Shown here piece after piece: positions 7,427 to 46,200 of a stretch of DNA of 64,000 nucleotides (positions are counted from its first letter, which is position 1; each line of letters opens with the position of its first letter). The notes beneath the pieces were generated by a model that searched no databases, was not told the DNA's origin, and saw only the letters and a list, made by a program, of their open reading frames with translations. The translations under genes were made by a program, and so were the position numbers. The DNA comes from a virus. Its lineage: Duplodnaviria; Heunggongvirae; Uroviricota; Caudoviricetes. The stretch lies in IMG/VR virus record IMGVR_UViG_3300006217_000002; one strand, 5' to 3'.

Positions 7427-8098
7427 TTATTTCTCAGGAATATCATCTGTTTTGGATGCAGAATTGAATTCTCTATCCATATTAATCTTGCTACCAGTAG
7501 CTTCTATCTGGCTATAGTATTTTGACCCTTTATTTTTAGCTCCATAAACCTGATTTGCATATTGAGCTTTGAAGAAATACACTTGAGCAACTCTCATTCC
7601 GGTATATAGAGCAATTGGATATTCTGTCTCATTAAACACCTCAAATGTGATAGTACCTCTGAAACCGGAATCAATTAATCCTGCCTGCTCAGTTTGAATT
7701 CCTACTCTTGCTATAGAAGATCTTCCTTGTACAAAACTTAGAATCCCATTTGGAATATTAAGAATTTCTTTTGACGCTAATAATACAAACTTACCAGGTT
7801 CGATGATTATACGATTATCAATTATTCCTCTTTCATATTGGATTTCTTTACGTACATCGATACAGTCAATAAGACCCTTCAGATATCTATGTCCTCCAAA
7901 ATTATTTAATTCCGGAATAGCTGAATTAGGTTTTAGTACCTTATAAGTATTTCCTAAAGTAAGATCAACAGAGTTAGGTTGTAGTTGTTCTTTGGAAATG
8001 GGTTGCTCGATAAGAATTCCTTTCCTATTATATTTCATGATTGTTCTATCACTTAATACAGGGCTAAAATAGTCATGTAACATTCGTAAAGATCCCAT
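7427..8098 (-). CDS. dcd: dCTP deaminase
   Basis: LSDRTI, LQPNSVDLTLG, GRSSIARVG, AGLIDSGFRGTITFE, GMRVAQ motifs; AAGGAGGTG RBS before ATG 8098. Confidence 0.92.
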   Translation of the reverse strand: MGSLRMLHDYFSPVLSDRTIMKYNRKGILIEQPISKEQLQPNSVDLTLGNTYKVLKPNSAIPELNNFGGHRYLKGLIDCIDVRKEIQYERGIIDNRIIIEPGKFVLLASKEILNIPNGILSFVQGRSSIARVGIQTEQAGLIDSGFRGTITFEVFNETEYPIALYTGMRVAQVYFFKAQYANQVYGAKNKGSKYYSQIEATGSKINMDREFNSASKTDDIPEK

Positions 8099-8116
8099 AT
8101 ATTTCACCTCCTTATT

Positions 8117-12771: not shown

Positions 12772-14733
12772 ATGGGTTTCATGGAATACTCAAACAAAAA
12801 CCAGGTAAATATCATCCCTCAGCAGGAGTTCGAAGAATTGTCTAGAGAAGTATTTGGAGTTATCTCTAGTAATCTTAGGAGATCTCTTGGACCTCTTGGT
12901 TCATCTGCTACTATTTTGGATGGAACGTTAACAGAGGCAACAAAGGATGGATATCATATTCTAATGAAATATCGTTTCTTTAATCGATATAAGAAGATGA
13001 TATATAACTTAATTAAAGCTCCTTGTACTCGTATGAATAATACTGTAGGAGATGGTACTACAACTGGTATCGTATTAACTTCTGCTATGTTTGACAGATA
13101 TCAAGATGCTAAAGGAAAACTCGTATCTATGTATCGTCTACCTAGGCAGTTCACAAAAGCGTGGGATGAAGTAATTGAGGATATTTGTAGAAGGGTATCA
13201 GAAAAATCTAAGCCTGTCGATCCTACTGATTATGATACTATCTATAATATTGCATATGTAACATCGAATGGAAATAAGGAGATCAGTGAGGCTTTTGCCA
13301 AGACATATAATGAAGCTAAATCTCCAGCAATTAAGATGAAGGATTCTCCGACCAATAAATCTTATATCAAAGAGATTGATGGTTTTGAATTTCCTGCTAA
13401 TGCTATTGATGTAGTATATGTAAGAAATCAGGATCTTACAGCTGAAGAAACCGATGTAGCAATCATGATCTTTGATCATAAAATTGGAACAGACTTCTTC
13501 AATAAAGTTCTTGTTCCGATTAACGAAGTACTTCGTGCAATGGGTAAGAAGCTCATTGTAATAGCTCCATCTTATGATGAATACATGTGTGATACTGTAC
13601 TTAGGCAGTATGTGAATTTAGAATGTAACAAGTATGGAGTTATCAATTTGATTCTTACACAGTATCGTTTAGGAGATCTTACTCCTCATCAATGTGAAGA
13701 TTTAGCAGTAGTATTGAGATGTAAAACTATCAATGAACAACTTGCTGATGGATTAGTTACTAGATTTAGTGAGAAGAACAGTGATCAGATAGTAGAAGAT
13801 ATAATTGAAAACAATGAATATGATCTATACAGAGTCATTGGTTCTGCTGCTAAAGTGTTTACATCTTGTAAGAATGGATGTATCTTTAATGTAACTGATA
13901 TTGAAGAGGATAAGGAATATCAGGAAGCTGTTACCAGAGCTAAAGCTGAACTCGATGCAGTTATAAGTAAAACTGATTTCGAAAAGCAGAGTATGGCTTC
14001 TAAGGTATACGAAGCAAGATCACGATTGATGCAACTGGAAATGAAAAACTACATCTATTATGTAGGAGCTGATAGCGAGCTTCAGAAACAGATTATTTGG
14101 GATTCAATCGATGATGTTATCAAATGCCTGAGATCAGCTATCAAGTACGGTGTAGTTCCAGGATGTCAGTTATCTATTGCGACTTCATGTGAGGAAGCAA
14201 TTACTGATATCATGGAGGAGATCAAGAAATGTCAGGATATTGAAAAGGAAATTAGTTATCAATATCCTCTTAAGATTGAAATTATTGGTATTATTTATAA
14301 TGCCGTGATTGATGTATATTCAATTCTTCTTCATGGAGCTGAAGGTCTTGGTATGGTTAAACTTATCGACGGATGGAATAAAAACAGTGATGAGTATAAT
14401 AAATTAGATGAGGCAGAAGATGCTGAAAGGGACGAAGATAAGAAGAAAGAACTACACGAGAAAAAGAAGAAAGTTCAGGATGAATATATCGATAATATTA
14501 AAGAAAAAGCTAGAGTAAAGGCTGGAGAGATCATTGCTGAATCCATTAAGGAGAATAAAGTATTTGATCTTGAAAACCTTGAATACAGTGATAAGATTAT
14601 CACATCAGCAGAAACTGATATAATGGTACTCAAGGTAGCCTCTGAACTGGTTAAGATTCTTATTAGTGGAAATCAATGTATCTTCCTTGACTCAGATGTT
14701 ACAGAATCTCATCAGGAAACTATGGAAATCTAA
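12772..14733 (+). CDS. groEL: Phage GroEL-like chaperonin
   Basis: SLGPLG, TKDGY, VGDGTTT and GVVPG nucleotide-binding motifs; 653 aa. Confidence 0.88.
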   Translation: MGFMEYSNKNQVNIIPQQEFEELSREVFGVISSNLRRSLGPLGSSATILDGTLTEATKDGYHILMKYRFFNRYKKMIYNLIKAPCTRMNNTVGDGTTTGIVLTSAMFDRYQDAKGKLVSMYRLPRQFTKAWDEVIEDICRRVSEKSKPVDPTDYDTIYNIAYVTSNGNKEISEAFAKTYNEAKSPAIKMKDSPTNKSYIKEIDGFEFPANAIDVVYVRNQDLTAEETDVAIMIFDHKIGTDFFNKVLVPINEVLRAMGKKLIVIAPSYDEYMCDTVLRQYVNLECNKYGVINLILTQYRLGDLTPHQCEDLAVVLRCKTINEQLADGLVTRFSEKNSDQIVEDIIENNEYDLYRVIGSAAKVFTSCKNGCIFNVTDIEEDKEYQEAVTRAKAELDAVISKTDFEKQSMASKVYEARSRLMQLEMKNYIYYVGADSELQKQIIWDSIDDVIKCLRSAIKYGVVPGCQLSIATSCEEAITDIMEEIKKCQDIEKEISYQYPLKIEIIGIIYNAVIDVYSILLHGAEGLGMVKLIDGWNKNSDEYNKLDEAEDAERDEDKKKELHEKKKKVQDEYIDNIKEKARVKAGEIIAESIKENKVFDLENLEYSDKIITSAETDIMVLKVASELVKILISGNQCIFLDSDVTESHQETMEI

Positions 14734-14751
14734 GTGTAACAATATAAACCA

Positions 14752-14789
14752 ATATAGGAATGGGAGGGTGATTCCTCCCATTCCTATAT
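14752..14789. terminator. Bidirectional hairpin terminator closing the radical SAM operon
   Basis: 16-bp stem ATATAGGAATGGGAGG/CCTCCCATTCCTATAT. Confidence 0.8.
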
Positions 14790-14790
14790 G

Positions 14791-15336
14791 TTATTCAGCT
14801 TTTACATACACAGTCATACTCATATCTTCATAATTGGAAGATACTAACTTAAGATCTACTCTGATAATTTCATCACCAGGTCTGAAGAATACATTTGGTC
14901 TGGAATCCATGGTTATCTTAAGAATACAATATTCCTTGTCATAAAAAACATTTACATTTGGAATACTTACAAATCTTCCAAATACATTTTCTGTTCTGAC
15001 AAGTTCGAAGTCAATATCTTTCGGATATTCCTCATTAATAGGCATAGTTTCATTATTTAGTATTTCAGTGATGAGACATCCTATGTTAAGTTTACCTGTA
15101 GATGTGAATTTATCTCCATTAACTGTGATGATCTTATTAGGTAATGATTTAGCTCCCAATTTGTTATTAGAGTCATCTTCGATAATCATTTCTTCGTGTT
15201 TTTCATTAGATACCTCTTCTTCACCATTAAGCTTTCTCTGAACTGCTTCTACCATATCATCAGGAACGTCTTCCAGTGTTAACGCTTCCTTTTGAATTAA
15301 TCTTACGTAATAATTCAATAATGCTTTGTTTGTCAT
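14791..15336 (-). CDS. Protein with N-terminal CD1375-like phage tail-associated domain
   Basis: YYVRLIQKEALTLEDVPDDMVEAVQRKL resembles small CD1375/XkdX-type modules found near tail fibre genes. Confidence 0.5.
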   Translation of the reverse strand: MTNKALLNYYVRLIQKEALTLEDVPDDMVEAVQRKLNGEEEVSNEKHEEMIIEDDSNNKLGAKSLPNKIITVNGDKFTSTGKLNIGCLITEILNNETMPINEEYPKDIDFELVRTENVFGRFVSIPNVNVFYDKEYCILKITMDSRPNVFFRPGDEIIRVDLKLVSSNYEDMSMTVYVKAE

Positions 15337-15351
15337 TATGAATATCCTCCT

Positions 15352-16479
15352 TTACTTGCCGTTATATGTTAGATCATATTCTTGATCAATAAGTTGAGTT
15401 CCAATCCTTATTTTCTGAACCTTCTTTGTTCCATCTGGAACTTTAACTTTATTAACCTGGTGAATGAAACGTTGTTTTTCAAAATCAAATCTGGAAGAAA
15501 TCTCTTCCATATTAGCTCCTGCTCTTGATATAGCATTATGAATACCATTACCTCCAAAAGCAATGATAACATTATTTTTAGCTATTTCAAAATTCCTATC
15601 AATAATCCCAACGTTACAACTTGTATGGAATTGATGATATTCTGGAGTTCTTAAATAATATGGCTCTTCTTCAAATGCAATAACATCATCTATATTTAAA
15701 GATAATGATTCCGGTTTAGCTATTACGTACTCAGAATGATGATCTAAAAAGTCTTTTAAAAGCTTCCTGTAATAAATAGATTTCCCATAATAATTTTTGC
15801 ATTTGAAATTTACAGAAGAACATATTCCGTCAGGTTTTAAAAGTGAAGAAGCTATATCAAGATCATTTATGAATATTTTCCATCCGTGTTCATTATCATC
15901 ATTGAATAATGCTACAATATCGATATTAACAAACATTTTATGTTCATGAAACTTTTCTATAGCCTTCTTCATCATTTCTATATTACCAGGTATTCTCTGT
16001 TGTTCTTTATTTGAAATTTCATCGAATGATTGAACTCCAAAACTTACAGTTTTAATATTCAAATCATTAATGATAAAATCAATCATTTCATCACTAATGT
16101 CGAATGGATGAACTTCAAATGTCTTAAGTTTTATCTCATCATAGATAGGAATATTGTTAATGAGTTCAATTAATTTCTTTTTATTCCATAAAGTAGGTGT
16201 TCCTCCACCGAAATAAATATTATTTACTCTATCAGGAAAGGCATCTTTCATATCCTTTACTAAATTAACAACTGCTTCTTCATATAAACTTATTTGATTA
16301 ATATATTGATGTAGTGTATAGGAACCAAAAACACAAAACTTACAAATAGATCTACAAAAGGGAAAGTCCACATATATCTCGATTCGAGTATCATCATTTA
16401 TTGGATTATTTTTAAAATAATTTTTCCAATAGTTTACGAACTCTTCGTTATTATGAAGATAATAAGGATAAATCATCAA
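15352..16479 (-). CDS. HemN-like radical SAM enzyme
   Basis: IYVDFPFCRSICKFC (CxxxCxxC), IYFGGGTPT, TFEVHP, VSFGVQSF. Confidence 0.85.
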   Translation of the reverse strand: MMIYPYYLHNNEEFVNYWKNYFKNNPINDDTRIEIYVDFPFCRSICKFCVFGSYTLHQYINQISLYEEAVVNLVKDMKDAFPDRVNNIYFGGGTPTLWNKKKLIELINNIPIYDEIKLKTFEVHPFDISDEMIDFIINDLNIKTVSFGVQSFDEISNKEQQRIPGNIEMMKKAIEKFHEHKMFVNIDIVALFNDDNEHGWKIFINDLDIASSLLKPDGICSSVNFKCKNYYGKSIYYRKLLKDFLDHHSEYVIAKPESLSLNIDDVIAFEEEPYYLRTPEYHQFHTSCNVGIIDRNFEIAKNNVIIAFGGNGIHNAISRAGANMEEISSRFDFEKQRFIHQVNKVKVPDGTKKVQKIRIGTQLIDQEYDLTYNGK

Positions 16480-17294
16480 GAACCACCTCCTTTTATCAAT
16501 TCAGCAAGATGCTTAGGATATGAACAATATGGTTGTAATTTACAAGGTCTACATGTCTTTACTCTGTCACATGTATAACATTCTACAGGTGTAGTTCCAG
16601 GTAAATTGTGTGGACATCTATTAACTAAATTTCCATCAGGATATAATGTATATACATTATCACAATCATATTGCCAACTACAAATTCTATCTCCTATTTC
16701 AAATTTAGTATCTAGATCCCATAATTTATAAACTTCACATAACCATAGATCTGCTTTCTCAAAATATTCTTTTGTTACTTCTCCTACGTAATGCTCAAAC
16801 TTTATCTCCAATAAGCATTCATTGTCAAACAATTTAGCTATCTTGATAAACTCCTGAGGAGTAATTTCAAATAGGTCATCTGTTAACGTAATCATCACTG
16901 TATAATTTATTTTAGATTTTGATAATCTATAGCAATTAGCTAACCATTTGTCGAACATAGATTCAGATTTAAATCTATGGGGATTCCATGATGTTGATAC
17001 ATGATGTAGAGTTTTATAAAACTCAATAAGTTCAGAATCTAAAATAATCAGGTTTGTAGAAATAGATGAGATTTTAGAAACCCCATCCACTTTATTTGTT
17101 TCTACAACGTCATTCATTCGTTCACGATTTGAAGTGATCTCTCCTCCAAATAGAATAATTTCTCCATTGAAATTATTCAATTGACTTATGAACTTATCAC
17201 GATTAAATTCCTCAGGAGTATCGACGATAAAACAATGATCACAGTTAAGATTACATTTCATTGTAGGAATTGCATATAAAACTTTATCATCCAT
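16476..17294 (-). CDS. Radical SAM enzyme with Cys-rich C-terminus (SPASM/twitch-like)
   Basis: CNLNCDHC, FGGE, YDC..LYPDGN...CP, CYTC.....CRPC.....C. Confidence 0.85.
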   Translation of the reverse strand: MDDKVLYAIPTMKCNLNCDHCFIVDTPEEFNRDKFISQLNNFNGEIILFGGEITSNRERMNDVVETNKVDGVSKISSISTNLIILDSELIEFYKTLHHVSTSWNPHRFKSESMFDKWLANCYRLSKSKINYTVMITLTDDLFEITPQEFIKIAKLFDNECLLEIKFEHYVGEVTKEYFEKADLWLCEVYKLWDLDTKFEIGDRICSWQYDCDNVYTLYPDGNLVNRCPHNLPGTTPVECYTCDRVKTCRPCKLQPYCSYPKHLAELIKGGGS

Positions 17295-17310
17295 TATGTT
17301 TCATCCTTTC

Positions 17311-18264
17311 TCATATCCACCCATACTTTTTGAATTTATCTTTCATCTTTAACATCTCTTCGCAATGTTCAGGAGGATATTCAATTTTCTGTGATCTACA
17401 GCCATTACAAATTGGAAACAGTTCACAAAAAATACAATTAGAATTTACATGTTCTGACACATGGGGATATTTTGACTCAGGTTCTGCATTATCATTTTCA
17501 AGATCTAACAGATGTTCTTTATCGACGATATCACAGCAGTCATAGTAATGAAGAACATCATTAGCATCAACATAACATGTTCTGATCATTGCATGACATA
17601 ACATATCTTTGTTAATAGGACATTTATTCATTTCATGGAATTTACAATAGACCTCATAATCTCCTAAACCGGCTTCAATGATTTCAAAATATTTAGCAAA
17701 TAATTTGTATCTAGGATATGTTGTCTGTTGTCTTCCTTGTTTCGTTGCATTGTTTATACGTACATATGTTCCTAATCGTTTAGCAAGTTCTGCTAATTGA
17801 ATAGCTGTATCTTCATTATCTTCATCTAGAACGGCAATGAATGGAAGATCCTTTCCATTAGTATATTTTTTATACAATTCATATATTTCAATAAACTTCT
17901 CTTCAGTAAATACTGTGTTAGGATCCCATCTTCTTGTCTCTCCATAGTTGAAAGATGTTGTAATTCCTATCCAAGGTTCGTTGAATAATGGAGCCCATTT
18001 TTCTGGATGGAAATAGAAATCCTTCAAATTAGTCGTAATTGCTATATGGCAACCTGCTAACTCGTGAAGTTCATAATAGTATGAAGGATCTACCATCAAC
18101 GGTTCTCCACCACTAATGATTATTCCATTTGGTTTAATTGTTTCTATTACCTTTTTGATCTGCTCAGGTACACCATTTTTAGGATGAGATATTTCCATAT
18201 CTCCTGCTGAACAGAAGGTGCAATCAAAGTTGCACCTTCCGGTTACTCTTATAATCAATTCCAT
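17311..18264 (-). CDS. Radical SAM/SPASM-domain enzyme
   Basis: CNFDCTFC, SGGEPL, ITTN, C-terminal CIFCELFPICNGC...HC. Confidence 0.88.
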   Translation of the reverse strand: MELIIRVTGRCNFDCTFCSAGDMEISHPKNGVPEQIKKVIETIKPNGIIISGGEPLMVDPSYYYELHELAGCHIAITTNLKDFYFHPEKWAPLFNEPWIGITTSFNYGETRRWDPNTVFTEEKFIEIYELYKKYTNGKDLPFIAVLDEDNEDTAIQLAELAKRLGTYVRINNATKQGRQQTTYPRYKLFAKYFEIIEAGLGDYEVYCKFHEMNKCPINKDMLCHAMIRTCYVDANDVLHYYDCCDIVDKEHLLDLENDNAEPESKYPHVSEHVNSNCIFCELFPICNGCRSQKIEYPPEHCEEMLKMKDKFKKYGWI

Positions 18265-18267
18265 ATG

Positions 18268-19512
18268 TTACTTGACCTCCGATCCATTATTACCAATTAA
18301 GCTATCGATAACTTTCTGAATATCGTCTTCCAATTTTGAATTAGCTTCTTTTTCCAAGTTACTTTGAACTTCCAAGATCTTCTTTTCATTATTTTCTAAC
18401 ATATCAGGATCTACGAGTTTATCGAAATATCTAACTTTCATATGTCCAATATCGCTGAATAACTTATAGAAAGCAATATTATATTCCTTTTCTCTTGTGC
18501 GAACAAATGCTGAATTAGGATCTTCGTCTCTATAAAGTAGAATATAAGGCTCAAACATATTTACCATATATTCAGTAGATTTACATATAATATTCCGAAG
18601 AGATTCATCTCTATCAACCATTGCATCTACAATACGATTTCTTACAGTATCTTCATTCGATAAATACACTACTGCAGGGACAGAAGGAATCTTTAGAAGT
18701 TTTGCAATGAAAAGGATAACATTATCTTTGATATCAACTGCTGATAGTACTTCACCATTCATTCTTAAGAATATTGGATCTTTGATTCCATTCTTTAAAA
18801 TATCCTCATAAAGAATATTAAATTCCTCCGAGTTCATATCACCAAATACATGATCATTTTTATCCATATCCCAGTTATATACACTTGGATGAAGTGGTTG
18901 ATATCTATAATAGTTATACGGGATATCAACACATAAAACATGAATAGGATCCTGAAGAGACGGAATCAATAATCCTGATTCATAAACCTCTGTTCCGAAT
19001 GAAGTATAATGCATACTCTTAAATTGTTTGAAGTCATGTTGTTTTAGTACGATGGCTTTATCTACTGATAAAACACTATGAAGATCTACTCTATCACGAA
19101 TAATAGATGGTCTCCTATCAATATCAAATAGGTCCTCTCCATTATAAATTGTAACCATTGCATCTTCATTATGTTCAATTACATACTTAATATAGTATGG
19201 GTGTACTATATACTTCTCATGACCGCCGACATATTCAGACACGGAAAATGCATCGCGTATATTTGATAAATTAATTGAATCATCAAGATCTATAGAATCA
19301 AGATCATCAATTTCTGCTTTGTCTGATTCATAAAATAGAACATCTTTAATTTCCATTAGATTTCTAAACTCTTCCATTGTCAATCTAATGGTCTGTCTAG
19401 TTCTTACAGCAGAAGATGCGTATTCCATATCTATAACAGGATTCATTATAAGATTACTTGTAAGATTAGGAAACTTACAAACGTTTCTAATCTGGTCTTT
19501 GATATTATCCAT
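18268..19512 (-). CDS. Hypothetical protein of the radical SAM operon, with a degenerate ParB/Srx-like segment
   Basis: AAGGAGG RBS before ATG 19512; LYEDILKNGIKDPIFL...IAKLLKIPSVPAVV. Confidence 0.55.
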   Translation of the reverse strand: MDNIKDQIRNVCKFPNLTSNLIMNPVIDMEYASSAVRTRQTIRLTMEEFRNLMEIKDVLFYESDKAEIDDLDSIDLDDSINLSNIRDAFSVSEYVGGHEKYIVHPYYIKYVIEHNEDAMVTIYNGEDLFDIDRRPSIIRDRVDLHSVLSVDKAIVLKQHDFKQFKSMHYTSFGTEVYESGLLIPSLQDPIHVLCVDIPYNYYRYQPLHPSVYNWDMDKNDHVFGDMNSEEFNILYEDILKNGIKDPIFLRMNGEVLSAVDIKDNVILFIAKLLKIPSVPAVVYLSNEDTVRNRIVDAMVDRDESLRNIICKSTEYMVNMFEPYILLYRDEDPNSAFVRTREKEYNIAFYKLFSDIGHMKVRYFDKLVDPDMLENNEKKILEVQSNLEKEANSKLEDDIQKVIDSLIGNNGSEVK

Positions 19513-20239
19513 TATCATTTCCTCCTTGTAAAGAATCATTTAAATTGTTTATAAATTCTTGCTGAAGTTCGGGACTGCCGAACATTATTAACATAAAATC
19601 GATATATGGTAAATTATCCATTATTTTGCTTAAATAAAAAGCATTATCGAAATTATTAAAAATATTCTTGAAATATTTTGGTTGAGAATTTTCTTCCAAA
19701 AGAAGATTGAATGATGGAAATTGAGTAAGCTGATAAAAGTTACACATTGAAATGTTATCTTCTTCAGATACATCAAATTCACTTAGATCAAATCCTTCCT
19801 TGTCCTCTTCATGAAATGTAGATATCGCATATAGAGGTAGTGAATTTATAAACTCATGAATCACTGAGATAAACCCACTGTGATTACTATTAAACTTTTT
19901 GATTTCATTTTCATCCAAGATAGAGTATTTATTTATAGCATCAGAATTGTGTAATATTTCAATCCATGAAATTGCTAGTTCTTCGGACTTAACTTCAATT
20001 CCAGATGTCATCCATAACATCAAAAACTCATCTTTATCTTCATAAGAACATTTACTGAAATCCAATTTCATTTTAATACCGCTATTTCTGATAAAAATGA
20101 AACTAGCAAGTTTTTGTTTATCAATTGGAACAGGAAAGTCTCCAATATCAGACATATCAACAACCAACTCATCTGATTCATTAATACTGGTTATGAATCC
20201 AGGAATCAGTAAGTCTTTCATAGATATATGTTTAAGCAT
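19505..20239 (-). CDS. Hypothetical protein of the radical SAM operon
   Basis: 244-aa acidic ORF overlapping the next gene's start. Confidence 0.7.
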   Translation of the reverse strand: MLKHISMKDLLIPGFITSINESDELVVDMSDIGDFPVPIDKQKLASFIFIRNSGIKMKLDFSKCSYEDKDEFLMLWMTSGIEVKSEELAISWIEILHNSDAINKYSILDENEIKKFNSNHSGFISVIHEFINSLPLYAISTFHEEDKEGFDLSEFDVSEEDNISMCNFYQLTQFPSFNLLLEENSQPKYFKNIFNNFDNAFYLSKIMDNLPYIDFMLIMFGSPELQQEFINNLNDSLQGGNDNG

Positions 20240-20257
20240 ATTTGCTATCTCTCCTTC

Positions 20258-20821
20258 TTACTTATAACAACTTGATTTAGAATGGCAATCAGAGTGGCAA
20301 TTTGAATGACAACGAGAATGACATAAGTCAACTCTTTTGACATTATTATGCTTATTCGCACTTCTCCATGATGCTAATAAATTAGCAAATAAAGTATTAA
20401 TAGAACGAATAGAAATAGTTCCATCAAGTGCAACTCCACCATTAGCAACTGCAGGAAGAGATTTAATATAGTTCGAATTAAACAAAGCTCTTCCTGATCC
20501 TGAACGTTGAACACTTATGTTTCCATTGGTATTGTAAGTTCTAGTATAAGTCCATGTTCCAACTCTGGTCAGGATTCGAGTTACCTCTACAAGATTATTA
20601 TAAATCTGAGAAGCTGAAATAGCTCCATCTTTAACTCCTACAGAAGGATTAGGTACAGATGAAAGAGCTCCTAAAATTGAAGCAGGTACCATTTCATATG
20701 AACCATCCATAGGTACATTTCCAGAATGGTTTACTCCACTAAGAATAGTGTTTTTTACCTGAGAAATAAAATCATTATTGATCGCACCTGTTGTGATAAC
20801 AGTATCTACAGTCATAGCCAT
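20258..20821 (-). CDS. Putative radical SAM substrate: virion-like protein with C-terminal (CHSx)4 repeat
   Basis: C-terminus VDLCHSRCHSNCHSDCHSKSSCYK; first gene of the radical SAM operon. Confidence 0.7.
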   Translation of the reverse strand: MAMTVDTVITTGAINNDFISQVKNTILSGVNHSGNVPMDGSYEMVPASILGALSSVPNPSVGVKDGAISASQIYNNLVEVTRILTRVGTWTYTRTYNTNGNISVQRSGSGRALFNSNYIKSLPAVANGGVALDGTISIRSINTLFANLLASWRSANKHNNVKRVDLCHSRCHSNCHSDCHSKSSCYK

Positions 20822-20891: not shown

Positions 20892-20921
20892 AGTGTATGG
20901 AGAGATATCTCTCCATACACT
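20892..20921. terminator. Perfect 30-bp palindrome, probable terminator or processing site
   Basis: AGTGTATGGAGAGAT/ATCTCTCCATACACT between the fibre genes and the radical SAM operon. Confidence 0.7.
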
Positions 20922-20939: not shown

Positions 20940-21425
20940 TTAAGAAGCAAATACAGCTTTGAGTGCTACCCATTTATTTCCATGATAAACATACGGAATG
21001 AAATTCGTTGTATTAATCCAAAGCTCCTTATCGTTCTTAGGATTAGATGGAGATGAACTCTTGATAGATACGCGAATACCGTTAACAGTATCACTGTTAC
21101 CTCCACCTGCTTTGAATGTTTCAGGAATTTCAAGAAGATCAGGATATCTACCTGTATGAGCTACAACACTCAATCCTGTAATCATTGTATACGGGTGAGT
21201 AGGTGGATGAGGGTTGTTAAGAGCTCCATCTTCAATACCAGCAAGTTTGCTCTTCTCTGCGTTTGTATAATCATTAGTACTAAACCCAGGAACAGTACCA
21301 TTTCCAAGACGGTGGTTTGCTACTCCCCCAGATCCAAGATGATTAGCAAAATCAACTACTACCTTATCCCACTTAGTACGCTCTTCAATACTAACGTGTT
21401 GTTTGATATCAGCATTATTAGGCAT
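20940..21425 (-). CDS. Small tail-fibre-associated protein
   Basis: HVSIEERTKWD and TNDYTNAEKSKLAGIEDGA are typical fibre motifs; the first is shared with the 1121-aa fibre (HITEEERDKWN). Confidence 0.65.
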   Translation of the reverse strand: MPNNADIKQHVSIEERTKWDKVVVDFANHLGSGGVANHRLGNGTVPGFSTNDYTNAEKSKLAGIEDGALNNPHPPTHPYTMITGLSVVAHTGRYPDLLEIPETFKAGGGNSDTVNGIRVSIKSSSPSNPKNDKELWINTTNFIPYVYHGNKWVALKAVFAS

Positions 21426-21439
21426 ATAAGTTTCCTCCT

Positions 21440-24400
21440 TTATTTAAATTTCCTTATAGGCAATGTATCAGTTGAGTTAGGACATTTCTCTTTAAACTTA
21501 GCAGCTCCATCTCCAGCAATAGTAATACCTGTGCTGAATGTAGTTTTACTACGTTCGAAACATCCAAATGTTAAACCATTGATTTCCATTCCTTCTGCAG
21601 CTGCAGCTGATACTGTAATGGTAGAAATCATATTCCAAGTGTCTCTCATAAATCCTCTCATATTAGCAGTACCTGCTAAAGCGTTAGGAAGAGTAAGTGC
21701 TTTGTTAAATGAGATACATCTGAACAAGAAATGATCCAAACATCTTGCTCCTGTAACGCCAGCAGGGATAGTAAGAGCCTGATTGAACGTACTGCAATAT
21801 TCTAAGAATCTCATCAAACATTGCTCGCCAGTTAAACTAGCAGGGATAGTAAGAGCCTGATTGAACTTAGTACAGCCAGAAAGAAATCTCTTCATAGCTC
21901 CTTTACCTGTAACGCCAGCAGGGATAGTAACTGCACTATTGAATGCTGTACAATTCTTCAAAAATCCATGTAAACATTCTTCTCCTGTAACGCCAGCAGG
22001 GATAGTAAGAGCCTGATTGAACTTAGTACATCCTTCCAGGAATTCCATTAAGCAGCGATCTCCTGTAACATTTGGAATTCTATTAACTTTAACAAGGTTA
22101 ATGAAGTTACATCCAAAACTACGTAAAGATGTAGGAACTGTCAATCCCGTATCAGCTTTCCAGAATTCAACTTCAGTAATATCGCTCTTCTTAAATACTT
22201 TTCCAGCAATATTAATATTTGAATTTGCTACCCTATGATTACATAATCTACTTAACTGAGACATCCATTTGATTATAACTGTTTCCCCACTAGCAAGTTT
22301 CACTTTAGCTAAAGGATCATCATCAGTAGCTTTAGTTTTATTAGGATCTTCTGCAATAGTTATTTCAAAATCCTGATAATATGATTCTGCCTGGAATACA
22401 ATTTTTTCAGGATCATTTTCTTTTGCATCTTTATACCATTCATAAGCTTCATGTTTACCCTGAGGAACTTCAGCTCTGATTTTAATCTTCTTTCCAACAT
22501 CTTCATTACCAATGGTAAGTGTTCCATCATTTGTAATACTTGTGCCAGTAGTTCCCCCGCTGTCAATCAACGACCATCTTACATCAGTATAGCTAGGAAC
22601 TTCTTCATCATACGTATTACTTTGCCTGTTTCCGATAACTTTATTTGTGTGACATTTAGGATCCAATACATATGAATTATCAGTTCCATTGACATAAACG
22701 GTTTCAGGAATATTAACTATGTTAGCAACTTCCATATATTCAGGAAGAAATGTTACATAGTAGCTATGTTCCCATGTAGAATTTGTTTCAGGTGTAACTT
22801 TTTCAATTCCATTAGGAACAGCAAATACGAATTTTGTAACTCCATCCTCGTAATTATAAAGGTAATAACAATCCATATTCCAGTCATAATCAGGATTGAA
22901 TTCAATGTTGTAATTCGTCTCCCAGTAATTCTGACTTTCAGTTCTAGGTCTAAAGGCTGTACATAATCCTCCTTTAAACTCAGGATCATTCGGTCTAATA
23001 GGAGAAACTTCAATTGACTGACCTGTTGCATTGAAAGGATCCGTTCCAAAACATAACATTGGTATTGGTCTCTTTGCTCTTATAATGGAGGGAAGATTCA
23101 TTCTAATACCTTCTACAGCAACGAATATATCAGGCGAAGCAGGAGGTACAATCGTAATACTAGCTGTTGCTACAAAATTAACTCCTCTTCGAACACCGTC
23201 TACAACTGTCATCTCAACCACTATAGGATCATTTATATTTTTAAGCCATTGATCAAAATAATCAGGAGGTGTAGGAGAAGGATTTCTGTTCCACCATGTT
23301 ACATTTTCATAGTCGATAACTAGCTGATTCTGTAAATTAAGACTGACTCTTGCAGCTGCTGGAGCGCTCTTAATTTTATATATGATATTTTTCATCGTAG
23401 CGTTAGATGGATACACGGTACCTGTTAAGTTCAAAGGCTCGTCAACAGGATCAAAGTTTTCAGGCATATTAGTAATGCTTTCAACAGATATCCACTCACT
23501 TCCTACGTTGATTGTGAATGTTCTTTCGTAGTTTACAGTTTCAGAGATACCTTTAACAATGGTAGCTTTAATTTTCAATGTACCAGCTCCTGTTGTAGAA
23601 AGTAAATCTCCATTCAATCTTGCTCCAGTAGTTCCAGCATCAGCAATACTATAACTAACATTTCTATATGTTGCATTTTCTGGTGTAACATTAGCTGTTA
23701 GTAATATAACCTCTTTAGCAATAATTGTACTATCGATTTGTAGAGTTACTCCTTCTACCGGAACAAACTTTGTTTTCACATCAATCCAAAAATCTCTTGT
23801 ATAATCCTGACTAGGACTTATACCTTTTCTTACAGTAGCTCTGATTAAACATGTACCAGCTACTCGAGCTCTTAAGTAACCATTATTGATATATGCTCCT
23901 GTACCTCTGGCATCAAGAATTGACCATTCGATTGTTTTAACAGAAGCATCACTTGGTTCAACGATTCCATTTAATAGAATATTGGTATCTGTATCAATAG
24001 TAGTTGAGATCCCTGAAACATTTGTAACTGATACATATCTCGGTACCACTACAGTACATGAAGCTGATAATTTTCCGTCAATAGTTGTAGCTGTAAATGT
24101 AACTGATCCTTCATTAATTACTGAAATAACTCCAGTATCTTTGTTAATACTAGCTACATATGAGTTAGAGCTATTCCATACTACTTTAGGTAAGTCAGCT
24201 GCTGCGGCATCTTTACCAATCTCAAGTTTATAAGTTGAATCTATATAAAGCTTTTCAGGAGCATTACTAATAAAGATAGATCCTAACTCTGCCGATACAT
24301 AGACATCACAGATATCTGAGAATACGTCTCGAGCTCCAGCTGCTGATACTTTACAATAGTAATAGAAATGACCAATTCTATTATATGGAACATTAAACGA

Positions 24401-25540
24401 AGATGATGTTTCTCCAGTTAATTCAGTACCATTCTCTGTAGACTTGGTAGAATTTCTATACCATTGATATTGCATGATTTTTGTAGTCGTTGAAGTTGCA
24501 TTTACAGCTAAAATATCTCCAGCTTTGTTCAGTGTAAGATTGATATTGGGAACTGGCTGACTGATAATTTGGATTTCATTTTCAACAGCTCTCACATTGA
24601 AATTTTTGAAATAACTTTTATCTGGACCAAGAGCCTTAGGAATAGTACATTTTAAAACAACAACTCCTGTTGATGTAGCTATAAGCTTATTATTTTCAAT
24701 TACAGCGTTACCAGATACTACTTCCCACACAGTACTCTGAACTGTTGCGTTGTATGGAAGAACTGTCATTTCTTCAAGAACGAATGGAACGTTTGTTACA
24801 ATATTATCAGGTAAACCGATTATATCAGTAACCGGAATAAATGCAGCTTCACCACTTTGAGGTTCAACATTAAGTACAGCTTTATCACTTCTATATACCA
24901 GTACTCCAGGAGAATTAGAAGGATATGCTGTATCCATTGTAAACCTGATAACAGCATTGTCTCTATTTGTGAACATTACTGTTGCATTACGCAATGTGAT
25001 GATAGATCCATCCCCCATTCTAACTCCCCAGTGGTTAGGATCATTACTGATAGTAAATACAACATCTGTAGACTGATTGGGAAATGGTATTGTAGCCTGT
25101 AGAGTTTTTGTATATCCATACTCTAAATTAGCTCCAGTGTTATCATCTATTGTAAATGCAAAGTATCCGCAAATGCTATTCATTTCAAACGGCCTTACAT
25201 CACTTCTTGCAGTAATTCCCCATGATGCAGTATCACTTCGATACATAAGAAAACATGGAGAGTTTGCAGGATATTTTTTATCCATAGTAAATAAGACTAT
25301 GGAATTATCTTTGTTAACAAATAATATTTCAGGGTCACGAATGGGGATGATAGATCCATCCCCCATTTGTGCAGCCCAATCTTCATGGCCTCTGCTGATA
25401 GTCAAATTGACATCACTAGCCTGAAGAGGATATGTTAATGCAAAAATACATTTGTTTGTATCACCATTACTATCACTGAGATTTCCGGTAGTGTCAATAG
25501 TAAACCCGTAAAATCCAGTTTTAGTATTTTTTATACCCAT
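21440..25540 (-). CDS. Large adhesin/receptor-binding protein: Ig-like (Big_2) domains plus C-terminal BspA/DUF285-like 26-aa repeats
   Basis: Repeated V.V..V...V.PxNAT...I.WS Ig-like units; YQWY...YYYCKVS Ig unit; CTKFNQALTIPAGVTG repeats. Confidence 0.75.
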   Translation of the reverse strand: MGIKNTKTGFYGFTIDTTGNLSDSNGDTNKCIFALTYPLQASDVNLTISRGHEDWAAQMGDGSIIPIRDPEILFVNKDNSIVLFTMDKKYPANSPCFLMYRSDTASWGITARSDVRPFEMNSICGYFAFTIDDNTGANLEYGYTKTLQATIPFPNQSTDVVFTISNDPNHWGVRMGDGSIITLRNATVMFTNRDNAVIRFTMDTAYPSNSPGVLVYRSDKAVLNVEPQSGEAAFIPVTDIIGLPDNIVTNVPFVLEEMTVLPYNATVQSTVWEVVSGNAVIENNKLIATSTGVVVLKCTIPKALGPDKSYFKNFNVRAVENEIQIISQPVPNINLTLNKAGDILAVNATSTTTKIMQYQWYRNSTKSTENGTELTGETSSSFNVPYNRIGHFYYYCKVSAAGARDVFSDICDVYVSAELGSIFISNAPEKLYIDSTYKLEIGKDAAAADLPKVVWNSSNSYVASINKDTGVISVINEGSVTFTATTIDGKLSASCTVVVPRYVSVTNVSGISTTIDTDTNILLNGIVEPSDASVKTIEWSILDARGTGAYINNGYLRARVAGTCLIRATVRKGISPSQDYTRDFWIDVKTKFVPVEGVTLQIDSTIIAKEVILLTANVTPENATYRNVSYSIADAGTTGARLNGDLLSTTGAGTLKIKATIVKGISETVNYERTFTINVGSEWISVESITNMPENFDPVDEPLNLTGTVYPSNATMKNIIYKIKSAPAAARVSLNLQNQLVIDYENVTWWNRNPSPTPPDYFDQWLKNINDPIVVEMTVVDGVRRGVNFVATASITIVPPASPDIFVAVEGIRMNLPSIIRAKRPIPMLCFGTDPFNATGQSIEVSPIRPNDPEFKGGLCTAFRPRTESQNYWETNYNIEFNPDYDWNMDCYYLYNYEDGVTKFVFAVPNGIEKVTPETNSTWEHSYYVTFLPEYMEVANIVNIPETVYVNGTDNSYVLDPKCHTNKVIGNRQSNTYDEEVPSYTDVRWSLIDSGGTTGTSITNDGTLTIGNEDVGKKIKIRAEVPQGKHEAYEWYKDAKENDPEKIVFQAESYYQDFEITIAEDPNKTKATDDDPLAKVKLASGETVIIKWMSQLSRLCNHRVANSNINIAGKVFKKSDITEVEFWKADTGLTVPTSLRSFGCNFINLVKVNRIPNVTGDRCLMEFLEGCTKFNQALTIPAGVTGEECLHGFLKNCTAFNSAVTIPAGVTGKGAMKRFLSGCTKFNQALTIPASLTGEQCLMRFLEYCSTFNQALTIPAGVTGARCLDHFLFRCISFNKALTLPNALAGTANMRGFMRDTWNMISTITVSAAAAEGMEINGLTFGCFERSKTTFSTGITIAGDGAAKFKEKCPNSTDTLPIRKFK
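21748..22030. repeat. 78-bp-period tandem repeats encoding 26-aa LRR-like units
   Basis: 41-bp identity 21748-21788 = 21982-22022; 36-bp identity 21839-21874 = 21995-22030. Confidence 0.9.
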
Positions 25541-37481: not shown

Positions 37482-38606
37482 TTATACAAGATATTTCTGC
37501 TGATCTTCAAAGATGATATGATCAGTTGAAATGCAGTCAGCAAGTAATGGAATTGCAACCTCTCTCATCTGAGGATGTGCATGGCCTTCAGCTCTCATGT
37601 CAAAGAAATGTTTCATTTCTCCAAGGCGAGCAGTCATTACAAGTTCTGCTTTTGTAGAATGACTAAGGACTGATCTCGCCTGCTGAGGTACCCATTTATC
37701 TTCTTTGATATTAGTAGTATCAGATGATACAAGGTCTTCATAGATATTAGAGCTGTGAATAATTGAATCAAGATAGTCCAAAGTTCTATATGACAGATTG
37801 TGAGGGTTAGAAGCCATAAAGTACTGATCTTTCAAATAATCTTCAAGCATTTCATCACTCAAGAGAACTTCTTTATCATGATCAGATAACCATTCAGGAA
37901 GAATGTATGTGCATCCTTTCTTTCCATAGTTGACATACCTTGTACTTTCCTGAGCCCAACTTGCAGGACGATGACGTACAGCCTCATGAGTTACTCCGCG
38001 ATCTACAATGAACTTAGTTGTCATGAAATCATGGATAAGACGAATGTTCCTAGGCATAGATTTCATCTCACTACGAGAGATAAGTTTTACTCCATCATGC
38101 ATCTCGAAGTCATTAGGGAAATAGAATCCTTCCGGCATCTTAGTAATTTCAGAATAATTATCGAGCATGAATTTACAAATATAATGGAAGCAAGAAATAA
38201 CGCCAGGGTTATTATATGCCGCCGTATCCCATAGATAATTAATTGCTGTAGCAGATGCAGAGAGAATGTATTGTTTATCAAGATCATCGCTTCCTTTAAT
38301 GTTGCTTAATTTTACAAATGATACTGCATTTGCAAAATCATAATCGTCACAATGTTCCATCATGATTTCATAGAACTCGTCATAGAAACTCCTAGGTATA
38401 TAAAATGCAAAGATATAGTGCTCCAACATAGCCCAGTGTTTACGATCACGAATGTTGTTCAAATATTTGATACAACTTTCATCTGTAATTTTATCCTCGC
38501 TTTTGTAACATACTCTACCGATTTTTTCCAGATGTTTAAGAACCTCCATTTTCTCAAACGGTTCAGGAATAGAAAACCTTTCAAATACAGCTTCAATAAA
38601 TCTCAT
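37482..38606 (-). CDS. thyX: Flavin-dependent thymidylate synthase
   Basis: GRVCYKS, HWAMLEH, HEAVRHRPASWAQESTRY, ARSVL, AHPQMRE. Confidence 0.92.
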   Translation of the reverse strand: MRFIEAVFERFSIPEPFEKMEVLKHLEKIGRVCYKSEDKITDESCIKYLNNIRDRKHWAMLEHYIFAFYIPRSFYDEFYEIMMEHCDDYDFANAVSFVKLSNIKGSDDLDKQYILSASATAINYLWDTAAYNNPGVISCFHYICKFMLDNYSEITKMPEGFYFPNDFEMHDGVKLISRSEMKSMPRNIRLIHDFMTTKFIVDRGVTHEAVRHRPASWAQESTRYVNYGKKGCTYILPEWLSDHDKEVLLSDEMLEDYLKDQYFMASNPHNLSYRTLDYLDSIIHSSNIYEDLVSSDTTNIKEDKWVPQQARSVLSHSTKAELVMTARLGEMKHFFDMRAEGHAHPQMREVAIPLLADCISTDHIIFEDQQKYLV

Positions 38607-38847: not shown

Positions 38848-39528
38848 CTATTCCTCCTGTATAGTTACACCTAATACAGATTCAATTATCCTTTTAATAT
38901 GGCTAAAAAGTACGTCAGGATCGAGAGTTCCATCAACTATCTTAATATTCTCTCCTCCATTGTTAATAAGATAATCAATTCCGTATCTGTAAGATTCACG
39001 AATCTTACAGAGCTTCTCTGTATTTTCATATACAGTTACAGCAGAATCTTCTCTAGCAGCATGAATTCTATCCAATGCAACCTTAGGAGGAGTATCAATA
39101 TATATAGTGACATCCGGTCGTAAGAGATCCATATTGATCTTATTACGATAAACGATATCAAGTAGTGCCGGCTGATATTTGTCGGTCCTAATATACTGAT
39201 ATGTATCATATGCAAGCGAAGATAGATAATATCTATCGCTTAAAACATGAATTCCTTCATTCAAAATATTCAACATGCCATCTTCTTCATTGGTTATGTG
39301 ATCCAATCTATCAGCAGCATATAGCATGTTTATTACTCTTTCATCACATTTCCGCTTTCCAGAAAGATAAAGATTTCTTAATAACTTTCCAATAGGGTTG
39401 TCTGTACATTCTCTTGTTACATGAACATGGAAGTCATTATGAGTTAACAACTTCTCAATCTTTTTAACTTGAGTAGTTTTCCCACTCCCATCAATTCCTT
39501 CAATAACTATAAATTTACCACGCTCCAT
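38848..39528 (-). CDS. tmk: Thymidylate kinase
   Basis: FIVIEGIDGSGKTTQ, LYAADR, LSDRYYLSSLAY, RPDVTIYID. Confidence 0.92.
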   Translation of the reverse strand: MERGKFIVIEGIDGSGKTTQVKKIEKLLTHNDFHVHVTRECTDNPIGKLLRNLYLSGKRKCDERVINMLYAADRLDHITNEEDGMLNILNEGIHVLSDRYYLSSLAYDTYQYIRTDKYQPALLDIVYRNKINMDLLRPDVTIYIDTPPKVALDRIHAAREDSAVTVYENTEKLCKIRESYRYGIDYLINNGGENIKIVDGTLDPDVLFSHIKRIIESVLGVTIQEE

Positions 39529-39635
39529 TTTTAATACCATCCTTTCTTGTTTAAATATTTTTAGATACAGAGTTTTATCTACTCTATATAATTAATACTA
39601 ACTTTATAAATGAATATTTTCAACGATACTCAGAA

Positions 39636-43272: not shown

Positions 43273-46200
43273 CTACTCGTCTTTCTTAGGTTCATCTTCT
43301 ATTGGTCCGTTTAGTATATCACCTTTTTGGATCATCATCTGAATATAAGTATCAAAAGTATCACTTAATACTTCCTTAAGTTGAATCTCTCCATTTGAAT
43401 CTTCAGCTCGATACACCTTTTTGTCTTTGATATTGAACACTCTAAGATCTTTTGGAGTAGCAGCAAATATGAGCATTTCGTCAAGATGTTTGTTATTAGC
43501 ATTTAATTTTCGTAATTCCGCCACCTGGAAAAATGTTAAATCTCCGGCTAGTACACATAACATAGGATTAGCAAGACGATAGAAATATCTCATCTCATGT
43601 GGAACGAATGGATACGAATCATGAAATGCATCCTTATCAAATATACTACCGAATGTATTTCTAGAATTATATTCTTTGCTCCATTCGATAAATGCAATAT
43701 ATAACTTCTTACGTCTCACTCCATTTTTATCCGACTCTGCTCTATCTGCTTGTTTTGGTAATGATTCTTTTTTTGGCTCAGGGTTTTCTTCCTTTACTTC
43801 TTCTTCGTTAGGAGTTTCGTTACCAACTTCGTTATTCTGATCACTATTACCTGAAGTATCTGTCCCTGCATCTTTTTCATCCTCACTTTCTTTATTAGTA
43901 ATTTTATCATCGCTTTCCGATTGTTCATCTACAACGTTGTTATCCAATTCAGGAGGTGAGTCTATCTCTTCATCGAGAACATTTTTTTCTTCCACAGTAT
44001 CAAGTTCAGGAGGATCTTCAATATCAGCTTCTGTGAAAACTTTTCCTTGAGGTATCACTCGTTCACAAAGAACTTCAGTTCTCCAGCTTTGATTTTCCAT
44101 ACTTGAATATGCACTTGACTCAAATGATTTCCTGAATTCTTCATCATTCATAAATTGCTGTATCCAGTCGAATCCTTCCTTAATAGCTTGACCTTTGTCA
44201 AATAGTCGATCATCTTCCAATCTCCACGATTCAACATATTCTCCTAAACTCATTCCACATCTGTAATTAGAATGAGTAGCAAATACAATTCCATCATACT
44301 TATGTGAATTGATATCATTGTCATCGTTATAGACTTCTAATACAGCGTCTTTAATTTCATTCACACTATTGTATGGTCCATGAATACCAGATTGATCCTC
44401 CCAAGCATTCTCAAACCACCAAAATTTGAATGGACCTTTTGCTGCATTTTCTTCATTAAATGGAGCTTTCCAGTCAGCAGATAATTTGGCTTCCTTAGCA
44501 GCAGTTCTGAACCACGTAAGAGTATGAGAGTTACCTCCTATAGGATTATCTTTACTGAACTCAACGAAGAAAATTTGTCCATTTATGATTCCAAGTGAAT
44601 GAAATATAAATGCTTCAAATAATGCCTGATCATGGCAATTACCTTTCTTTTCTACGTATACTTCTGATGGAAGTTTCAATTTCCATCCAGTGATAGTTTT
44701 ATCGTACGAAATATTCTTATGCATCCATTCGTAAATTTCTTCTGGTGTATGTCCAATCTCATTTAATGTACTTGAGTTAAGTACAATTGCTTCATTAGAC
44801 ATAACACTTTCATTGAATGATTCATTTGCTGATTGGTTAGTACTAAGAAACATATCATATTGAGAAGATAAACCATTATCAACTTTAGATTGACTTTCCT
44901 GTGAAATTTCAAAACCATGACTTTTATAGGTCTTTAATGCTATCTCATTATCCATCTGAACTGATAATGCATCTACTCCATGATCGATTGCATAATCAAG
45001 TAATTGATGACTAAGTCCATATCCATTATAAGCATAAGCGACATCCATTCCAGAAATCCATTTATGACCATCATCTTTATTGGGAACTTTGTCATATGTT
45101 ATAGAACAAACATAGTTTCCTTGATCATCAACCCAGAGTAAACACTCATCATCATATTTAGGATCATCATCTCTCATATATGAAATAAGTTTACCTTGAT
45201 CAGCAAATTTCTTCGTGAGTTCCTTTGTTATTTTCATCATTGTGAAATCTGAAAGAGACTTAGTTCCTTTTGGTTTGAAATTTTCATCAACATTACTCTT
45301 CAGAACCTTGAAGTAGTCACTTTCATCAAACAGATTTATCCTCATACTCTCAAATATGTGTTGCTGAATAAAATGGAAATTTTCTGCAATTCTTTCATTG
45401 TAAACATTGTCGCGTTTCATAGTGTTGATTTCTTTTACAGTATCACGATGAAACTGTTCAGCTTTAAAACCAATCTTTTTAGCTGCTTCAATATTTTCCT
45501 CTCTATCATCAAAGAAGATACATGTATGAGGATTTAACTTAAATCTATCAATAAGAAGTTGATAAATTTTAGGATCAGGTTTTTGACATCCAACATCATA
45601 TGAAACTAATCCCCCATCAAATTGATCAAGATATTTAAATTTTCCTTTCTGCTTCATAAGTTCGAATCCACTTTTATGCCAATTGGAAAGATAATATAAT
45701 TTGTATCCTTTATTTTTCAGCTCCTTGATCATGGAATCAGTATAATCATATGCATCTCCAGATAATGCTAATATTTCAAAAATATCATCTGAATATTGTT
45801 TAATATCATCCGTAAGAAAAGATTGATATAATTTCTTAGCATTGAAAATTGATGCAGTTTCATAATCCTCCAATTTGTCATAATAAGATTTTACAAAACA
45901 ATCAAGCTGAGTCTCATTAAATTTATTATGATATTTCTTCTTGATTAATTCTTTTCCGCCTTTCGGTTCACTTAAAACAGAGCCTATATCGAATATAACT
46001 GTATCAACTCCATCGAAATCAAATCTTTCTGTGAACTTCTTTGTTTTAGTATCTTGGAAATAAAGTTCACCATGATGCCATACTGGCTCAATACTCAATT
46101 CTCTGAAATGTTTATTAAGATGAGCAACTATTTGTTTATTTTCTGGAGTATGATTTACAAGAACTCCCTGATTTCTAGCACATATGTATGCTGATCTTAA

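Follow-up and report, generated by a model that had tools for sequence, protein, structure and literature searches.

We analyzed a 64,000-nucleotide stretch of DNA, hereafter the window, from a virus of the class Caudoviricetes (IMG/VR record IMGVR_UViG_3300006217_000002). Seven co-oriented minus-strand genes, g1 to g7, lie there between two palindromes and include a gene for a protein with a Cys-His repeat tail (g1) and three genes for radical S-adenosylmethionine (SAM) enzymes (g4, g5 and g6). According to the list of open reading frames (ORFs), neighboring genes overlap or have short gaps between them (Table 1). A preliminary description, drawn from the sequence alone, had reported seven packed genes bounded by palindromes; its coordinates held and both palindromes are real. 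The ORF list likewise confirms its 187-residue protein ending in CHSRCHSNCHSDCHSKSSCYK, a tail with the layout (Cys-His-Ser-x)4...CYK. Six-frame motif scans of the whole window show that the CHxx repeat is confined to g1, and that among the window's genes the radical SAM motif CX3CX2C occurs only in g4, g5 and g6. The sole additional CX3CX2C match falls in a 96-codon stop-to-stop stretch on the plus strand, opposite the gene at 21440-25540. The hairpin ahead of g1 is terminator-like, possibly an RNA-stabilizing element instead; the one beyond g7 is likely a bidirectional terminator.

Table 1. Features of the cassette and its borders (positions in the window; aa, amino acids).
Feature	Position	Strand	Basis or remark
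g0, 161-aa small protein, tail-fiber-repeat-like motifs	20940..21425	-	weak partial PHROG matches: 18608, tail-fiber family 24456
Hairpin between g0 and g1	20892..20921	-	13-bp stem, 4-nt loop, T-run on minus strand
g1, 187 aa, Cys-His tail, presumed substrate	20258..20821	-	tail-coding DNA 20261-20323
g2, 244-aa conserved partner	19505..20239	-	always directly downstream of tailed protein; hhalign to jumbo-phage genes
g3, 423-aa protein, accessory in the window's subfamily	18268..19539	-	synteny in relatives
g4, radical SAM/SPASM enzyme, 317 aa, core	17311..18264	-	Pfam 53 bits; Cys motifs
g5, second radical SAM/SPASM enzyme, 272 aa, core	16476..17294	-	PHROG 1802; 7-Cys SPASM pattern
g6, HemN-like (class-C-type) radical SAM, 375 aa, accessory	15352..16479	-	CX3CX2C at residues 42-49, GGGTP
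g7, 181 aa, outside conserved unit	14791..15336	-	co-transcribed by position
Hairpin between converging g7 and GroEL-like gene	14752..14789	.	perfect 16-bp stem

The g1 protein is predicted to consist of two parts. AlphaFold2 models residues 1-167 as a globular alpha/beta domain with a mean predicted local distance difference test (pLDDT) score of 85.8, and residues 173-187 score below 50, suggesting that a disordered tail stands beside a confidently folded domain. A search of 5.8 billion proteins recovered 12 relatives, and in their alignment the tail is the best conserved part, with C167, H168, C171, H172 and C175 invariant. When 1.84 billion cluster representatives were searched with a profile, 437 matched at E<=1e-3, 194 of them at E<=1e-10. 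Across 42 diverse members with 25% mean column identity, the only invariant residues are three Cys-His dyads (C167 H168, C171 H172, C175 H176). The dyads are spaced four residues apart, positions 3 and 4 of the unit drift, and the number of units ranges from 3 to 6 or more. The majority tail reads ...V-C-H-[AS]-S-C-H-[SN]-S-C-H-[GS]-S-R-G-R-R (RR-type hereafter); the window's type, (C-H-S-x)3-4...C-Y-K, is less common, and longer Cys/His-rich variants also exist. Some members are fused to Gly_rich_2, immunoglobulin (Ig; He_PIG) or DUF285/BspA-type leucine-rich repeat (LRR) domains, all typical of surface or fiber proteins.

No Pfam or NCBIfam model covers members of this family, and Foldseek found no match to the g1 fold in PDB at E<=0.001. 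The best result of a wide VIA search had a Z of 3.8, so that no known fold was recognized, which does not in itself prove a new one. Matches of the g1 model in BFVD are uncharacterized phage proteins only, among them a 296-residue protein of phage Atu_ph07. By its alpha/beta domain, its at least three C-H-x-x units and its g2-type and g5-type neighbors, g1 belongs to a phage family of Cys-His-tailed proteins. This family is essentially viral, since 185,579 species genomes hold only 7 of its loci. Five of the 7 are on contigs of Bdellovibrio-like metagenome-assembled genomes (Bdellovibrionota; loci L182-L185 and L187).

The preliminary description had proposed gene-neighborhood analysis as a check, and by this measure the repeat protein and the enzymes do recur together. 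On the contigs of six relatives the order g0-g1-g2-g3-g4-g5-g6 is kept at a g1 identity of only 46-47%; locus L003 holds g0-g1-g2-g4-g5 only. A scan of IMG/VR with the single g1 sequence gave no match; the family profile later pulled out 80 loci. A g5-type radical SAM gene is present in 80/80 of these, g2 in 77/80 and a g4-type gene, sought within 8 kb, in 68/80, all on the same strand. In the three loci lacking g2 the sequence ends at or within ~300 bases of the g1 gene. The usual order is g5-g1-g2-...-g4, and g5 lies directly upstream of the tailed protein in most relatives. Conversely, when 80 loci were collected with g4, g1 was found within 10 kb in 51. Five of the remaining 29 were searched as whole records and every one has a CH-tail gene, either just past the locus or, in complete genomes (267-270 kb), at a distance of 18-42 kb; many of the other 24 are short contigs.

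Cultured phages display the same association. Homologs of g4 with ~30% identity occur in 15 cultured jumbo-phage records, and in 15/15 the tailed protein is encoded beside radical SAM genes. Phages carrying the cassette include RSF1, RSL2, Atu_ph07, DT01 and Phosso, with tails ending ...VCHSSCHSSCHGSRGRR in RSF1 ORF071, ...FCHSSCHASCHNSRSRR in Atu_ph07 gp170 and ...ICHTSCHTSCHSARGRR in DT01 PA10_00065. This link was reached through g4 only, followed by reading the neighboring ORFs; searches of cultured phages with g1 (tblastn) and with the region (blastn) gave no match. Radical SAM clusters without the repeat protein, which the preliminary description had named as a finding that would speak against its proposal, were not seen in any resolved case. 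Together the comparisons support the view that the tailed protein and its radical SAM/SPASM enzymes constitute a single functional unit that has been conserved, as near-complete genome-level co-occurrence and a fixed order across very distant phages would be difficult to account for if they were not directly linked in function.

The universal core of the cassette is four genes, g1, g2, g4 and g5, to which g3 and g6 are subfamily accessories. The cassette is widespread in large phages, and the window's gene set is not unique to its phage; the window holds a rarer variant, in which the tail ends in CYK, a HemN-like enzyme and the 423-residue g3 are present, and oxygenases are lacking. The operon had also been portrayed as one system. 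This stands for g1 and the radical SAM/SPASM genes and fails for g7, which is missing from the relatives' cassettes and has other small genes at its position in L005 and L008. The label "CD1375-like" given to g7 is weak: the CD1375_fam model (NF040910) scores 20.1 bits against a cut-off of 22.5, and covers residues 10-38 only (29 residues). In three IMG/VR loci (L176, L177 and L178, from G002, G003 and G005), two tandem tailed paralogs of 126-138 residues, each ending CHxSCHxSCHxSRGRR, lie ~9 kb from the g5-g4 enzymes on the opposite strand.

We placed the three enzymes in the radical SAM superfamily, as all have CX3CX2C. With the Pfam Radical_SAM model (PF04055), both g4, at 53 bits, and g6, at 68.9 bits, exceed the gathering cut-off of 29.5 bits. 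The g5 protein matches PHROG 1802, "radical SAM", at 1e-16; in RSF1 and Atu_ph07, the genes that match it best (weak BLASTP, E 2e-5 and 2e-6, respectively) are annotated radical SAM. In g4, Cys11/15/18 and eight auxiliary Cys (C215, C223, C243, C277-x2-C280-x5-C286-x2-C289, C301) are conserved, jumbo-phage orthologs included. Likewise, g5 conserves Cys14/18/21 and seven further Cys (C211, C227, C239-x2-C242-x5-C248-x2-C251, C257), whose SPASM-like spacing is common to the jumbo-phage orthologs. The SPASM pattern is a C-terminal set of seven Cys, CX9-15GX4C ... CX2CX5CX3C ... C, and g4 and g5 have CX2C instead of CX3C as the last spacing. The conserved Cys sets agree with the earlier reading of these two proteins as radical SAM enzymes with Cys-rich, SPASM-like tails. 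Orthologs of g4 in the IMG/VR loci score ~400 bits. Among solved structures, only the anaerobic sulfatase-maturing enzyme anSME (4k37) matches the g4 profile over its full length (profile 2-319 to chain 5-353, E 4e-7), and the third-best NCBIfam match of g4 is HxsC (N-terminal region, E 1e-6), just behind two MoaA models.

The third enzyme, g6, had been called HemN-like; it has CX3CX2C and GGGTP and matches the HemN/ChuW/HemW models of NCBIfam at E 1e-19, over its N-terminal half only and with scores of <=70 bits against cut-offs of 205-650. It aligns with E. coli HemN (1OLT) over residues 31-164 (E 2.8e-8), and no HemN_C domain match was obtained with Pfam or NCBIfam models. The gene is present in L005, L006, L008, L009, L014 and L016, and absent from L003, L039 and every RR-type locus. 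The cassettes of RSF1, DT01 and Atu_ph07 have extra SPASM paralogs together with cupin and 2-oxoglutarate oxygenases where the window's subfamily has g3 and g6. A role of the enzymes on DNA or nucleotides, raised by the DHFR genes inside the RSF1 cluster, was rejected; the conserved core has no such genes, and the window's nucleotide genes lie 6-20 kb off. These genes (dCTP deaminase-like, ThyX-type thymidylate synthase and thymidylate kinase; 7427-8107, 37482-38606 and 38848-39540, all on the minus strand) are ordinary for a jumbo phage.

The conservation pattern of the tail would also suit an unmodified metal- or Fe-S-binding motif of a structural or fiber-associated protein, the enzymes then having a different substrate (a cofactor, a small molecule or some other protein of the virion). 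Metals are classically bound by Cys and His, and His-coordinated iron or zinc is found in T4 fiber proteins. A binding site of this kind agrees with units in which Cys and His alone are invariant and which vary in number. We nevertheless consider it unlikely, given that the tailed protein and two orthologous SPASM enzymes co-occur in fixed order across very distant phages. SPASM enzymes typically modify peptides or proteins, and the core holds no other conserved candidate substrate.

A homolog of g1 has been detected in phage particles. The virion proteome of Atu_ph07 lists gp170 (encoded at 3983-4873 of L002) with a mass of 31.89 kDa, 8 unique peptides and 35% coverage (PMC6102473, Table S5). 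The computed mass of the Atu_ph07 tailed protein is the same, 31.89 kDa, which confirms the identity of gp170. The protein was found in gel bands 1-9 and was most abundant in band 1, the topmost slice (PMC6102473). This band corresponds to ~4x the protein's own mass, and the distribution would fit an assembly that is covalent or stable in sodium dodecyl sulfate. The part of Table S5 covered here does not include gp164, gp165, gp168, gp171 or the partner gp169 (PMC6102473); gp165, gp168 and gp171 are radical SAM proteins. As far as that part of the table goes, the presence of gp170 in virions without the enzymes speaks for a modified protein of the virion rather than for a secreted peptide.

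These data bear on whether the cassette makes a classical ribosomally synthesized and post-translationally modified peptide (RiPP), in which the 165-residue domain would serve as a large leader and the Cys-His core would be cleaved off to yield a small bioactive peptide or a metallophore for antibacterial activity, signaling or host takeover. A C-terminal core beside radical SAM/SPASM enzymes is the standard RiPP layout, as seen with the PapB, CteB, YhhB and ChlB maturases of ranthipeptides, sactipeptides and triceptides, which act beside C-terminal Cys- or aromatic-rich repeat cores. The g4 protein resembles PapB (NF047865) weakly, with 18.8 bits against a cut-off of 340 (E 8e-4, residues 3-289), and falls outside that family; its matches to HxsC, PapB and cyclophane maturases are all far under the cut-offs. 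The in-silico Cys-Xaa-Xaa-Xaa repeat target of Haft (TIGR04117, cut-off 50 bits) weakly matches the tails of the relatives P0031 (14.9 bits) and P0026 (11.9 bits) and gives no match to g1 at E 10, even though the literal pattern of a Cys at every fourth residue is present in g1. However, the putative leader is modeled as a well-folded conserved domain of a 187-residue protein, and the Atu_ph07 homolog is recovered from virions with 35% coverage. In addition, LRR or Ig domains follow the tail in some members, an arrangement at odds with release of the core. As the preliminary description had noted, no exporter or leader peptidase is found in the cassette or among the annotated ORFs of the window; PqqD, peptidase and ABC matches are lacking in g2-g7 and their neighbors, although g2 could still hide an RRE. 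A classical RiPP is thus very improbable.

The surroundings of the cassette point to the host-recognition apparatus. The upstream genes in the window are fiber- or adhesin-like, in agreement with the preliminary description, which had put the operon directly downstream of such genes: they encode a 1366-residue protein matching the PHROGs "structural protein with Ig domain" and "major tail protein", and a 1121-residue tail-fiber protein. For 10 diverse RR-type loci, we sampled the large co-oriented ORF that lies closest to the cassette on its upstream side. Of these ORFs, seven have matches among tail or tail-fiber PHROGs, two match phrog_22593 only, and one is a DNA repair exonuclease. The family phrog_22593 is unannotated and co-matches with tail-fiber family 19602 in 5 of those 7 ORFs. 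In pelagimyophages, radical SAM cassettes that may differ from the present one were described in a host-recognition cluster (PMC7029224). The gene position suggests that the g1 product is located near the fiber or baseplate.

We propose that the genes form a phage protein-maturation cassette in which the Cys-His tail of g1 undergoes covalent remodeling by g4 and g5 with the help of g2, and that the product joins the virion. We consider this probable. Co-occurrence and synteny lend genetic support to a RiPP-like modification of a virion protein. Late in infection, g1 would fold into its compact alpha/beta domain and leave the disordered (Cys-His-x-x)n tail exposed, probably to be presented to the enzymes by g2. 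Each of g4 and g5 would then use a 5'-deoxyadenosyl radical to abstract hydrogen from residues of the tail, with g1 as the putative substrate, and remake the tail covalently. The chemistry could be thioether or other cross-linking, C-C bonds included, conversion of Cys to formylglycine, or formation of a His cyclophane; metal binding by the tail is also a candidate. In the window's subfamily g6 probably adds a one-carbon unit, and g3 would be accessory. Finished g1 would be built into the virion, most likely near the fiber or baseplate apparatus.

Several observations weigh against this proposal. Modification has not been observed on any g1-family member, genetic linkage does not prove the identity of the substrate, and a tail of metal ligands could work unmodified. 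The g5 protein scores 21.4 bits with Pfam Radical_SAM, under the cut-off, and neither a Pfam SPASM match (E 0.1) nor an RRE match was obtained. The support from virions comes from one distant homolog only, as gp170 shares 30% identity with g1 over 66 residues, and the Atu_ph07 table, in the part covered, has no per-peptide data and so is silent on the state of the tail (PMC6102473). In two complete genomes the tail gene is 18-42 kb from the enzymes. Nor is the cassette always beside fiber genes: DHFR genes are interspersed with it in RSF1, and the gene that precedes it in L083 encodes a DNA repair exonuclease. The broader claim of the preliminary description, a modification system whose product is a virion tail appendage, is supported as to the conserved unit and, within the limits of the table, the virion homolog in Atu_ph07, and is unproven as to the modification, its chemistry and a site in the tail or fiber tip.

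A precedent for such a cassette is HXS, in which two radical SAM enzymes, HxsB and HxsC, and a small partner, HxsD, mature the repeat-bearing protein HxsA, with a change of +8 Da on an SHRSS motif (PMC13128918). HxsA acts on DNA entry, and HXS is an antiphage system (Li et al., Nat Commun 2026; PMC13128918). The two share more than the enzyme set: the substrate is protein-sized with short tandem His-containing repeats, and the product is a functional protein with no released peptide. The sequences set them apart. In g4, HxsC similarity amounts to 27.6 bits against a cut-off of 267.9 and is limited to the N-terminal 55 residues; none of the Hxs models (TIGR03976-03979) matches g5, and the HxsA model does not match g1 even at E 10. 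The repeat of HXS is His-Xaa-Ser, whereas the window's tail is C-H-S-x with invariant Cys and without His-x-Ser; the RR-type majority tails do read C-H-x-S. Furthermore, g1 has no peptidoglycan-binding domain, the HemN-like enzyme has no HXS counterpart, and the cassette is phage-encoded, its product being, in Atu_ph07, a virion protein.

Tentatively, we suggest that the tailed virion protein sits at the fiber or baseplate and is rebuilt by the radical SAM/SPASM enzymes, in the window also by a HemN-like C1 enzyme, into a cross-linked or cofactor-like structure required for adsorption or DNA entry, perhaps as the phage-side counterpart of the HXS barrier. The resemblance to HXS could be taken further, to a counter-defense or entry device in which the matured basic tail, with its RGRR or CYK end, acts in the host envelope during DNA ejection and not in receptor binding, for example by neutralizing HXS-like periplasmic barriers or by escorting DNA. 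The parts run parallel, HxsA itself affects the entry of DNA (PMC13128918), the majority tail has an RGRR end, and a protein found in virions, as the homolog is in Atu_ph07, is deliverable with the particle. Such a device is improbable, because g4, g5 and g1 are not members of the Hxs families, the window's tail lacks His-x-Ser units, and HXS is nearly limited to Pseudomonadota, whereas the cassette also occurs in low-GC uncultured phages.

Two other known enzyme classes can be set beside the maturation cassette. The anSME enzyme (4k37), a minimal radical SAM/SPASM protein that lacks an RRE domain, modifies a Cys or Ser residue in a target protein. The similarity is low, however, and the cassette has two paralogous enzymes and a partner. 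The target motif of anSME is C/S-x-P-x-R, which is not present in the g1 tail. HemN class C enzymes (1OLT, ChuW/HutW, HemW) share with g6 CX3CX2C, GGGTP and an aligned radical SAM core; unlike them, g6 reaches 69.9 bits against the ChuW cut-off of 400, over its N-terminal half only, and its presumed context is protein maturation rather than heme metabolism.

To our knowledge, radical SAM maturation is established for secreted peptides (RiPPs), sulfatases and, since 2026, the HXS effector, and not for a structural protein of a virus particle. Full-text literature searches found radical SAM genes merely annotated in jumbo-phage genome papers and no functional study. If the proposed maturation is true, it represents a class of enzymatic virion maturation without described precedent. 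Hundreds of large phages of soil, water and gut origin carry the cassette, and since its usual location is the host-recognition region, it may affect host range or entry. The variant in the window distinguishes the four genes of the true core from the accessory ones, and the maturation of g1-type proteins is directly testable in the cultured phages Atu_ph07, RSF1/RSL2 and DT01.

The remaining genes of the cassette are less well characterized. The g2 protein is related to Atu_ph07 gp169, RSF1 ORF073 and DT01 00064 (hhalign probability 97.5%, E 6e-12), each encoded immediately after the tailed protein of its phage. It has no Pfam match, and its Atlas model is poor and gave no usable matches. A predicted g1-g2 complex scored 0.00, below the mark, which counts neither for nor against binding. 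The g3 gene probably starts at an internal Met at 19512, giving 414 residues. It is absent from L003 and from RR-type cassettes, and no homolog in jumbo-phage cassettes, Pfam match or PDB sequence match was found. Its AlphaFold2 model is poor (pLDDT 57), and a VIA search aligned the C-terminal helix only. A ParB_N-like assignment, based on an Atlas feature score of 0.90 to ParB_N clusters alone, is a weak lead, and Pfam and the AlphaFold2/VIA comparison gave no confirmation. A 94%-identical g3 was found on a 233,988-bp contig, indicating that the phage of the window is a jumbo phage of ~234 kb. Orthologs of g0 (62-68% identity in L003 and L005-L007) precede g1 in these four loci and also in L014, L016 and L039; g0 is conserved directly upstream of g1 in the window's subfamily only.

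Other genes were noted in the window and in one relative. The GroEL-like chaperonin gene that converges on g7 (12772-14733, plus strand, 653 residues; PHROG 5725 at 2e-61) has its hairpin terminator in common with the cassette. Pfam Cpn60_TCP1 covers the N-terminal 160 residues of its product only, and the gene adjoins the cassette in L009 too. A 477-residue protein (53009-54442, minus strand) has faint PemK/MazF-like and STAND NTPase matches, both under the Pfam cut-offs. A 1086-residue protein (43273-46533, minus strand) combines a HAD hydrolase, a GNAT acetyltransferase and a transglutaminase-like core. In L003, a 1473-residue protein with a weak Transglut_core match is encoded near the cassette.

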